From NCBI RefSeq assembly GCF_003334315.1, contig NZ_QOWR01000087.1: a DNA stretch of 10,895 nt; one strand, written 5' to 3'. Origin of the DNA: Escherichia coli. GTDB taxonomy: Bacteria > Pseudomonadota > Gammaproteobacteria > Enterobacterales > Enterobacteriaceae. Below are positions 7,690-10,895 of this stretch, one piece after another. The notes beneath the pieces were generated by a model that had not been told where the DNA came from, searched no databases, and worked only from the letters and a program-made list of their open reading frames with translations. The translations under genes were made by a program, and so were the position numbers. Numbering within the stretch: the stretch's first letter is position 1; every line of letters begins with the position of its first letter.

Positions 7690-7700
7690 TTATCTCGCCG

Positions 7701-7880
<180 letters not shown>

Positions 7881-7928
7881 CCTGATGGACATTTTTCCAG
7901 CAATTACACCTCCGGCGATAATTAACTA

Positions 7929-7964
7929 TTGACGAAAAGCTGAAAACCACTAGAATGCGCCTCC
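7929..7964 (+). promoter_or_regulatory. Stable-RNA type sigma-70 promoter for the tRNA-Leu gene
   Basis: -35 TTGACG (7929-7934), 16-bp spacer, -10 TAGAAT (7951-7956), then a GC-rich discriminator gcgcctcc typical of stringently controlled tRNA/rRNA promoters. AT-rich sequence upstream; about 35 nt of leader before the mature tRNA 5' end. Confidence 0.5.
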
Positions 7965-7997
7965 GTGGTAGCAATTCTTTTTAAGAATTGATGGTAT

Positions 7998-8084
7998 GCG
8001 AAGGTGGCGGAATTGGTAGACGCGCTAGCTTCAGGTGTTAGTGTCCTTACGGACGTGGGGGTTCAAGTCCCCCCCCTCGCACCA
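7998..8084 (+). tRNA. tRNA-Leu (anticodon CAG), leuQ/leuP/leuV family; single copy in this window
   Basis: 87-nt sequence gcgaaggtggcggaattggtagacgcgctagcttcaggtgttagtgtccttacggacgtgggggttcaagtcccccccctcgcacca. It has class II tRNA features: long variable arm, CAG anticodon in the loop cuUCAGgu, T-loop GGTTCAAGTCC and an encoded 3' CCA. Confidence 0.95.
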
Positions 8085-8122
8085 ATTATCTTTACTTCCT
8101 TTCTTGTTTCTTCCTTGATTTT

Positions 8123-8359
8123 TCATCCCTGATTCAAATTCATTAGCATCAGCATGATGCCAGCACTAAGCGCCAGGCACGATGGTAGCAAAATGTAATG
8201 CCGTAACTGTTTGTGATACAGCATCACCGGCGTCAATATCAATCCCATCAGAATGACAATCCGCCACTGATCCGGCGATAAATCCGCATACATCAGCCCT
8301 GCAATCAGCAATCCCGGCAGCAACACTCCCCAGCCACTGCCCAGCGTACGTTGCAACAT
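8123..8359 (-). CDS. yjjZ: Small uncharacterized membrane protein YjjZ (Fur-regulated by location)
   Basis: 78-aa hydrophobic product MLQRTLGSGWGVLLPGLLIAGLMYADLSPDQW. ATG at 8357-8359. The 115-aa track ORF would start at a TTG inside the fhuF promoter / Fur-box region, which is unlikely. Confidence 0.75.
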   Translation of the reverse strand: MLQRTLGSGWGVLLPGLLIAGLMYADLSPDQWRIVILMGLILTPVMLYHKQLRHYILLPSCLALSAGIMLMLMNLNQG

Positions 8360-8377
8360 GGTTTCATCTCTTTCATT

Positions 8378-8416
8378 GATAATGATAACCAATATCATAT
8401 GATAATTTTTATCATT
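8378..8416. promoter_or_regulatory. Fur boxes (overlapping) in the yjjZ/fhuF divergent control region
   Basis: gataatgataaccaatatc (8378-8396) and atatgataatttttatcatt closely match the Fur consensus GATAATGATAATCATTATC. They lie immediately upstream of yjjZ. Confidence 0.7.
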
Positions 8417-8465
8417 TGCAAGCCAGAGAAATCCCTTGCTATCGGGTAAACCTATCGCTAGGATT

Positions 8466-8486
8466 AGCAATCATTATCATTTAGAT
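8466..8486. promoter_or_regulatory. Fur box overlapping the fhuF promoter
   Basis: agcaatcattatcatttagat contains AATCATTATC, matching the 3' half of the Fur consensus, about 15-35 bp upstream of the fhuF ATG. fhuF is a classic Fur-repressed gene. Confidence 0.6.
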
Positions 8487-8499
8487 TACTATCCCGATT

Positions 8500-9288
8500 A
8501 TGGCCTATCGTTCCGCACCGCTCTATGAAGATATCATCTGGCGAACGCATCTCCAGCCGCAGGATGCTGGGCTTGCACAAGCCGTACGTGCGACGATCGC
8601 CAAACATCGTGAACATTTGCTCGAGTTTATCCGCCTGGATGAACCCGCTCCGCTTAACGCCATGACGCTGGCGCAATGGTCATCACCGAATGCGCTAAGT
8701 TCTCTACTCGCGGTCTATTCCGATCATATCTATCGCAACCAACCAACGATGATCCGCGAGAACAAACCGCTGATCTCACTATGGGCACAATGGTATATCG
8801 GCCTGATGGTGCCACCATTAATGCTGGCGCTACTGACGCAGGAAAAGGCATTAGATGTGTCGCCGGAACATTTCCATGCTGAGTTTCACGAAACCGGACG
8901 CGTCGCCTGTTTCTGGGTCGATGTGTGTGAAGATAAAAACGCAACACCACATTCGCCGCAGCAGCGAATGGAAACGTTAATCAGCCAGGCGCTGGTTCCG
9001 GTTGTGCAGGCACTAGAAGCGACCGGAGAGATCAACGGCAAACTTATCTGGAGTAATACCGGTTATTTGATCAACTGGTATCTCACTGAGATGAAGCAGC
9101 TGCTCGGCGAGGCGACGGTTGAATCGCTGCGCCATGCCCTCTTTTTTGAGAAAACGCTCACGAACGGTGAAGATAATCCACTCTGGCGTACCGTGGTACT
9201 GCGCGATGGCCTGCTGGTGCGCCGCACTTGCTGCCAGCGTTATCGCTTACCGGATGTGCAGCAATGTGGCGATTGTACGCTGAAATGA
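8500..9288 (+). CDS. fhuF: Ferric-siderophore reductase FhuF ([2Fe-2S] protein)
   Basis: 262-aa ORF MAYRSAPLYEDIIWRTHL ending in the Cys cluster C-C-x10-C-x2-C (RRTCCQRYRLPDVQQCGDCTLK) characteristic of FhuF. Confidence 0.93.
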   Translation: MAYRSAPLYEDIIWRTHLQPQDAGLAQAVRATIAKHREHLLEFIRLDEPAPLNAMTLAQWSSPNALSSLLAVYSDHIYRNQPTMIRENKPLISLWAQWYIGLMVPPLMLALLTQEKALDVSPEHFHAEFHETGRVACFWVDVCEDKNATPHSPQQRMETLISQALVPVVQALEATGEINGKLIWSNTGYLINWYLTEMKQLLGEATVESLRHALFFEKTLTNGEDNPLWRTVVLRDGLLVRRTCCQRYRLPDVQQCGDCTLK

Positions 9289-9294
9289 AAGCAC

Positions 9295-9316
9295 TGCCGG
9301 GGAAGTAAACCCGGCA
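9295..9316. terminator. Hairpin between the convergent fhuF and bglJ genes (possible bidirectional terminator)
   Basis: tgccggg / cccggca 7-bp stem with an 8-nt loop, 7 bp after the fhuF stop and 10 bp after the bglJ stop. Flanking U-tracts are modest. Confidence 0.45.
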
Positions 9317-9325
9317 TCATGCGGA

Positions 9326-10003
9326 TTAATAGGGATGCAACACATTACTTGCTTCGCAATGCCGCATACATAACAGAATATCTGCGGCCTCCAACAACCC
9401 TGCATCAGAACTGACGCCCAGTTTCGACATCACATTAAATTTATGTGCACGGATCGTTTTGATATTGCGTTTAAGCTGCTCGGCAATTTGTGTCATTGAG
9501 TAGCCACGCGACATAAAGCGCAATATTTCTCTCTCCGTGGGGCTTAGCGTCCGGCTTTGGTTAATGTACCACTGATTGTTCAGTCGGTCGGTCGCCTGAC
9601 GTACACCATTTAATGACAAAAAGAGTTCCTGATGAAAAATCTCCAGCGTTGACGCTTTACTTAATACACCGTCCAGCGGTGATGGCGACAATGAACCAAT
9701 CAGCCGAGCTTCAATATCATCATCCGCAATAACTAAACGCCGGGTACGCGGAAACTTAATCGCCAGTTCAGTCAGGCAAGATAATCCCTCTCTGCGCTCA
9801 CTTCTCATGGCAGAAAAAGAAAAAATGACCGCCGCAAACGAGATCCGCGTCATGGCATCCTGAAATGACTCCTGACTGGTATAGGTATGGAGCTTATAAG
9901 GGTTACCCGCAAACTTTCTGAATAAACTCTCAATACCGATACTACTCATGACGCATTTTTCTATGAGTGCGACATTTCTCTTCTTAATTCGGCTGTGTTC
10001 CAT
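9326..10003 (-). CDS. bglJ: LuxR/FixJ-type transcriptional activator BglJ
   Basis: 225-aa [31 protein letters not shown] with a C-terminal LuxR-type HTH ([44 protein letters not shown]). The start overlaps the 3' end of yjjQ by 43 nt. Confidence 0.92.
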
Positions 10004-10442
10004 TCTGCGGCATCTCCATAAACAGAAGGCAAGTTAAGTTCTCTTGCACCCTGCGCGCTATTTATCCATGCATACATTTCAGCGTTGCTGTGAATTGCCA
10101 GTCGACGCATCGCACTGTTTTTTTGGGCGCTGATAGTTTTATTACTTTTCTTAAGCAATGAAGCTATCTGGTTGATGCCCCATCCTTTACCTAATAGCCG
10201 CAGTACCTTGCGCTCTGAAAGAGTGAGAATGACGGAGCGATAGCTAAAATCATGAGTTTCAGTCATTGCCGGAGAGGTCAGCATGGCGCTGATACGCTCT
10301 GCGTGCGTATTGCCGGAACGTACGGTCTTGACCAGATTCTCAATGGGTTCAACATCAGACAATAACGTCGCCGTAGGGCACATGAGCAGTTCTACTGCCT
10401 GGGAATACCAGGAGCGTGACACCATGAAAACCCAGTGAATTT
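9961..10442 (-). pseudogene. yjjQ: yjjQ (LuxR-type regulator), 3' portion only; 5' part separated by an IS1 insertion
   Basis: The reading frame ending at 9961 with a LuxR HTH ([42 protein letters not shown]) stays open upstream of the ATG at 10425, encoding ..[12 protein letters not shown].., up to the IS1 terminus at 10443. From memory full-length YjjQ is about 241 aa, so roughly 87 N-terminal codons are displaced beyond the IS. A 154-aa ORF (9961-10425) remains that could in principle be translated. Confidence 0.75.
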
Positions 10443-10895
10443 GGTAATGACTCCAACTTATTGATAGTGTTTTATGTTCAGATAATGCCCGATGACTTTG
10501 TCATGCAGCTCCACCGATTTTGAGAACGACAGCGACTTCCGTCCCAGCCGTGCCAGGTGCTGCCTCAGATTCAGGTTATGCCGCTCAATTCGCTGCGTAT
10601 ATCGCTTGCTGATTACGTGCAGCTTTCCCTTCAGGCGGGATTCATACAGCGGCCAGCCATCCGTCATCCATATCACCACGTCAAAGGGTGACAGCAGGCT
10701 CATAAGACGCCCCAGCGTCGCCATAGTGCGTTCACCGAATACGTGCGCAACAACCGTCTTCCGGAGACTGTCATACGCGTAAAACAGCCAGCGCTGGCGC
10801 GATTTAGCCCCGACGTATCCCCACTGTTCGTCCATTTCCGCGCAGACGATGACGTCACTGCCCGGCTGTATGCGCGAGGTTACCGACTGCGGCCT
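10443..10895 (-). mobile_element. IS1 insertion sequence, right end (partial; continues beyond the window)
   Basis: Terminal sequence ggtaatgactccaacttattgatagtg matches the IS1 right inverted repeat, followed by the insB reading frame. The element is 768 bp in full, so about 315 bp lies outside the window. The flanking 9 bp agtgaattt (10434-10442) is the candidate target-site duplication. Confidence 0.92.
10458..10895 (-). CDS. insB: IS1 transposase InsB reading frame (part of InsAB'), 5'-truncated by the window edge
   Basis: Translation ..[125 protein letters not shown] matches IS1 InsB. The frame is open to the window end. Confidence 0.9.

Follow-up and report, generated by a model that had tools for sequence, protein, structure and literature searches.

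The C-terminal cysteine cluster of the siderophore reductase FhuF is intact in an Escherichia coli locus with a truncated yjjQ

Introduction

FhuF is the archetypal iron-sulfur ferric-siderophore reductase of the FSR family, and in the literature its family is defined by the motif C-C-x10-C-x2-C. The same motif, in native numbering (cysteines 244 and 245), is given in an earlier characterisation paper, which also describes Fur-mediated derepression of fhuF at low iron and its repression by OxyR (PMC8068687). In the 1.9 A structure 7QP5, residues C268, C269, C280 and C283, all carried by one loop, are the ligands of the [2Fe-2S] cluster; the numbering used there is the native one plus 24, i.e. 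the ligands are native C244, C245, C256 and C259 (bioRxiv 10.1101/2023.07.04.547673). Fe1 is held by C269 and C280 (native C245 and C256) and Fe2 by C268 and C283 (native C244 and C259), and this placement of adjacent cysteines on different iron atoms is, according to the authors, unique among [2Fe-2S] proteins (bioRxiv 10.1101/2023.07.04.547673). In the same study, resonance Raman spectroscopy indicated complete cysteinyl coordination, and the cluster cysteines were found to be hydrogen-bonded by S117, N210 and R271 (native S93, N186 and R247) (bioRxiv 10.1101/2023.07.04.547673).

The potential of the FhuF cluster is very low (about -420 mV at pH 8), and the protein was not reduced in vitro by NADH, NADPH or spinach ferredoxin; once reduced, K-12 FhuF gives an electron to ferric ferrichrome (at about 110 per second at 20 C), bisucaberin and ferrioxamine (bioRxiv 10.1101/2023.07.04.547673). 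YdbK is only a proposed electron donor for FhuF, which does not bind ATP in vitro.

Here we analyse the fhuF gene of a 10,895-nucleotide stretch of E. coli DNA (the window, in which all positions below are counted), together with its promoter region and the neighbouring genes.

Results

Identity of the fhuF gene and its cysteine cluster

The predicted fhuF product (Table 1) is 100% identical to RefSeq WP_000331559.1, the annotated FhuF of strain VG1046-3E9. It matched two NCBIfam equivalog models named 'siderophore-iron reductase FhuF', i.e. (i) NF007932, at 478.5 bits, where the cut-off is 300, and with model positions 1-262 of 262 covered, and (ii) TIGR03951, at 230.6 bits, where the cut-off is 63.85. 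In the Pfam scan, PF06276 was placed N-terminal to the cluster loop, and the match to PF11575 spanned model positions 1-21 of 21.

Table 1. Coordinates of the features described in this study (positions in the window).
Feature	Position	Strand	Details
tRNA-Leu(CAG), single gene	7998-8084		context 7860-8220
Sigma-70-type promoter-like site of fhuF	8376-8403	+	TTGATA, 16 nt spacer, TATGAT; 10/12 consensus matches
Fur-box-like palindrome	8378-8396		GATAATGATAACCAATATC; 2 mismatches to GATAATGATAATCATTATC
fhuF CDS, ferric-siderophore reductase FhuF	8500-9288	+	ATG-initiated ORF, 262 codons + stop
Pfam FhuF PF06276 ('palm-like' domain common to siderophore synthetases)	8776-9207	+	residues 93-236, E = 1.4e-26
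Pfam FhuF_C PF11575, 2Fe-2S C-terminal domain	9220-9282	+	residues 241-261, E = 1.5e-6
C-C-x10-C-x2-C cluster, four [2Fe-2S] ligands	9229-9276	+	C244, C245, C256, C259
yjjQ remnant	9961-10442		YjjQ residues 83-241 of 241 left
IS1 end	10443-10895		GGTAATGACTCCAACTTATTGAT; matches the IS1A copy of strain VG1046-3E9

The + strand at 9229-9288 translates as CCQRYRLPDVQQCGDCTLK followed by a stop, which corresponds to the last 19 codons, in frame with the 262-codon ORF; the full translation of FhuF terminates in LLVRRTCCQRYRLPDVQQCGDCTLK and the same stop. This range is composed of the motif itself (9229-9276), three codons for TLK and the stop codon (9286-9288). The cysteines are encoded by TGC at 9229-9231 (C244), TGC at 9232-9234 (C245), TGT at 9265-9267 (C256) and TGT at 9274-9276 (C259), and the regular expression CC-x10-C-x2-C gave an exact match at residues 244-259, with the loop CCQRYRLPDVQQCGDC. 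Both the translation and the exact pattern match agree with the initial annotation, in which the cluster had been described as intact in this range.

FhuF contains six cysteines in total, two of which (137 and 143) lie outside the motif. When the residues of the protein were shuffled, the C-C-x10-C-x2-C pattern arose in 4 of 200,000 shuffles, which rules out a chance arrangement of the cysteines.

Comparison with K-12 FhuF and distribution of the gene

K-12 FhuF (b4367, NP_418787.1; PDB 7QP5) is of the same length (262 aa) and identical at 256 of the 262 residues, and all six cysteines are shared in position (137, 143, 244, 245, 256 and 259). The two proteins are distinguished by the substitutions V12I, P23A, T24G, V65A, M83T and H155Q; none is found after residue 155, and the C-terminal 107 residues (156-262) are identical. 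Alignment with 7QP5 ('Ferric iron reductase protein FhuF'), the one structure of characterised FhuF in the Protein Data Bank, was gapless to residues 18-262 (E = 1.4e-163) and the only differences were the engineered C143S and the K-12 polymorphisms. Thus, the alignment to characterized FhuF that had been proposed as a check revealed no difference in spacing or in residues, stretch 156-262 being the same in the window, K-12 and 7QP5, and the unusual arrangement with two adjacent cysteines is, as claimed, fully present, its four ligands matching those of K-12 FhuF and 7QP5 in identity, position and spacing. S93, N186 and R247, the hydrogen-bonding partners of these cysteines in 7QP5, are also the same in the window protein.

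It is worth mentioning that 'Asp 259', the redox-Bohr residue of the structure paper (bioRxiv 10.1101/2023.07.04.547673), corresponds under the +24 rule to Arg235, the neighbour of which is Asp236. The numbering of the preprint is likely to be off by one or mixed here, which leaves the conclusion untouched, because every residue past 155 is that of K-12.

At the nucleotide level, the window and K-12 fhuF differ at 24 positions, of which 17 are silent and 7 lie behind the six amino-acid changes. From the 17 synonymous among 24 differences we infer that purifying selection may well act on fhuF. The differences from K-12 in fhuF and in the region upstream are ordinary strain polymorphisms.

A 931-base fhuF region was found, at a DNA identity of at least 95%, in 5,424 of 5,426 complete E. 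coli genomes, where it is annotated as fhuF; by the same threshold, the 3'-terminal 120 bases of fhuF, motif included, were present in 5,421 of these 5,426 genomes. Records at least 99% identical across the 931-base region numbered 930. The intact cysteine motif is therefore an ordinary and already known feature, since its spacing is the textbook one and the gene, which is full length, is carried by almost every E. coli genome.

In the family search (1.84 billion representatives of 50%-identity clusters), 374 relatives were detected at E up to 0.001, and the motif was counted in the 86 sequences of at least 200 aa among the best 150 of them. The form C-C-x10-C-x(2 or 3)-C was kept in 84 of these 86 full-length distant relatives. 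The x2 spacing was present in 58 of the 86, with all four cysteines invariant, and in this class L/Q, R, Y, x, L and P were favoured after the CC pair. The last two cysteines are separated by x3 in 26/86 (about 30%) of the distant representatives of the FSR family, whereas in the window protein they are separated by the canonical x2. The x3 class often ends in CGSLC, e.g. in proteins P0062, P0072, P0077 and P0078. The remaining 2 of the 86 had no motif and look like frameshifted gene calls: along their matched N-terminal part they share 97% and 59% identity with the query, and beyond it they diverge.

Promoter, Fur box and the region downstream of fhuF

The Fur-box-like palindrome overlaps the promoter-like site of fhuF in its -35 hexamer and spacer (Table 1), and 0 such matches to the 19-base Fur consensus are expected by chance. 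Both the Fur-box-like site and the promoter hexamers are identical in K-12 and in the window, as judged by sequence match only. The 140-base yjjZ-fhuF intergenic region contains three base differences from K-12 (8361, 8428 and 8461), all outside the Fur box and the hexamers; a degraded promoter was accordingly ruled out. Two further stretches, GATAATTTTTATCATTTGC (8401-8419) and GCAATCATTATCATTTAG (near 8468-8485), appeared Fur-like by eye and were rejected as a second Fur box, having more than 3 mismatches to the 19-base consensus.

The terminator scan revealed no canonical terminator 3' of fhuF on the + strand. A 7-bp hairpin, TGCCGGG-GAAGTAAA-CCCGGCA, is located at 9295-9316, between the convergent stops of fhuF (9288) and bglJ (9326); it was missed by the scan because no T-run follows it on the + strand. 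On the - strand, the sequence past this hairpin is GTGCTTTCATTTC. The hairpin may represent a shared or a bglJ-side terminator.

Integrity of the locus

The whole window aligns to the opgB...osmY region of K-12 in reverse orientation. Its gene order includes rsmC, tRNA-Leu, yjjZ, fhuF, bglJ and yjjQ, of which yjjZ-fhuF-bglJ are arranged as in K-12 and VG1046-3E9. Among the protein-coding genes of the corresponding RefSeq annotation, yjjV, yjjU, ytjA, osmY, prfC, yjjG, rimI, holD, rsmC, yjjZ, fhuF and bglJ are full-length ORFs with no internal stops, and the products of these twelve genes differ from the references by 0-5 amino acids.

The match of yjjQ to K-12 ends at 10442 and IS1 sequence begins at 10443, the window ending inside the IS. 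The exact junction 10442/10443 had no single clean match in any complete E. coli genome, and IS1 was present elsewhere in yjjQ in fourteen genomes. One of these is VG1046-3E9, in which a simple insertion lies 118 bases further out and neither half of yjjQ is missing. On the basis of the fourteen genomes, yjjQ looks like a recurrent target of the element.

A second difference was observed at the tRNA-Leu site, where K-12 and VG1046-3E9 carry three tandem genes (leuQ, leuP and leuV) and the window only one, being 236 bases shorter. The one-copy stretch was matched in one piece by about 509 of the 5,426 complete E. coli genomes, which makes it a common copy-number polymorphism. The single gene is probably the product of recombination among tandem copies.

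Repeated sequences were also detected: positions 1-77 of the window recur upstream of yjjV in strain VG1046-3E9, four times and in a tandem-like manner, and a 50-base unit is present twice between rsmC and the tRNA-Leu gene (7698-7747 and 7809-7858). These repeats are probably intergenic elements of the REP/BIME type.

The intact motif had been proposed to serve as an internal control for a locus undegraded apart from yjjQ. This description holds insofar as the other twelve genes are full length and yjjQ is truncated by IS1; it fails for the tRNA-Leu site, reduced from three copies to one, and the motif carries no information on its neighbours. As a check of the locus the motif is weak, because the integrity of one gene tells nothing of those around it.

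Discussion

We consider it very probable that positions 8500-9288 of the window represent an intact E. coli fhuF allele that encodes active FhuF, and no result of our analysis speaks against it. On sequence grounds, the earlier prediction that the reductase is functional was reasonable and well supported, given the full-length ORF, the identity of residues 156-262 with K-12 and the conserved sequence of the Fur-box-like promoter. The assignment of the ligands, the reduction of siderophores and the regulation by Fur come from published work; that the allele of the window is itself expressed and active is what we infer from them.

The reading frame and the ligands could be intact in an allele that is nevertheless impaired or silent, if one of the substitutions or intergenic changes affected stability, cluster loading or expression. 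Such an effect could be sought among the six amino-acid and three intergenic differences from K-12, and FhuF is known to be unstable and prone to aggregation in vitro (bioRxiv 10.1101/2023.07.04.547673). However, the same protein is the RefSeq product of other strains, the 930 records counted above share 99% identity or more across the gene region, neither the Fur box nor the hexamers are changed from K-12, and synonymous changes outnumber non-synonymous ones by 17 to 7. Moreover, the substitutions are all conservative or N-terminal, and residue 12 lies within the first 17 residues, which K-12 FhuF loses through autolysis (bioRxiv 10.1101/2023.07.04.547673). We thus regard an impaired allele as very unlikely. 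P23A and T24G are situated just past the site of this N-terminal loss. It is likewise improbable, to a similar degree, that these two changes, or V65A, M83T and H155Q, would make the window allele behave unlike K-12 FhuF with respect to autolysis of the N-terminus, aggregation or a loose association with the membrane, and no result of our analysis points to this.

The cysteine pattern might also be taken for a coincidence or for a feature unrelated to an iron-sulfur cluster, such as a zinc site or disulfides. Other metals can indeed bind Cys-rich C-termini; no result of our analysis speaks in favour of this reading, and against it stand the rarity of the pattern among the shuffled sequences, the invariance of the four cysteines in the 58 x2-spaced distant relatives and the structure paper on 7QP5 (a truncated C143S construct), by which it is contradicted. 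We consider this reading extremely improbable, even more so than an impaired allele.

For an intact, active FhuF the following sequence of events can be proposed. The putative fhuF promoter is predicted to be overlapped by a Fur box, and fhuF would therefore be switched on at low iron: iron limitation would lift Fur repression and FhuF would be made. Its C-terminal loop CCQRYRLPDVQQCGDC would carry all four thiolates that coordinate one [2Fe-2S] cluster, with C245 and C256 on one iron and C244 and C259 on the other, solvent-exposed iron. The cluster, reduced by an electron donor, would then pass one electron to Fe(III)-hydroxamate siderophores imported by the Fhu system (ferrichrome, ferrioxamine and coprogen), and this reduction would free Fe(II) in the cytoplasm. 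The window protein very likely acts in this way too, because it is 98% identical to K-12 FhuF and the surroundings of the cluster are identical.

There is nothing novel in the finding on the FhuF motif. The strain has the normal E. coli gene for the release of iron from hydroxamate siderophores of other microbes, which matters very little, as almost every E. coli carries fhuF. The sole practical use of the motif is as a sanity check of the annotation, and each neighbouring gene still needs a check of its own.

With regard to known systems, FhuF shares with the SIP family (YqjH/ViuB type) the reductive release of iron from ferric siderophores as well as a redox-Bohr effect. In contrast, the SIP proteins have an unrelated fold, and their cofactor is FAD instead of the [2Fe-2S] cluster of FhuF; the FAD- and NAD(P)H-binding domains of the SIP type were absent from the window protein, in which the Pfam scan detected PF06276 and PF11575 alone. 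The IucA/IucC-type (NIS) siderophore synthetases, e.g. AcsD, have the palm-like domain PF06276 in common with FhuF, and a similarity of fold has been described (PMC8068687; bioRxiv 10.1101/2023.07.04.547673). Unlike FhuF of the window, these synthetases are devoid of the C-terminal cysteine loop, and the Pfam scan of the window protein (262 aa) revealed no IucA_IucC synthetase domain. The organization found here, in which the FhuF_C cluster loop comes after the Pfam FhuF domain, is that of the FSR family at large, and the gene occupies the same chromosomal position as its K-12 counterpart, where fhuF lies between yjjZ and bglJ.
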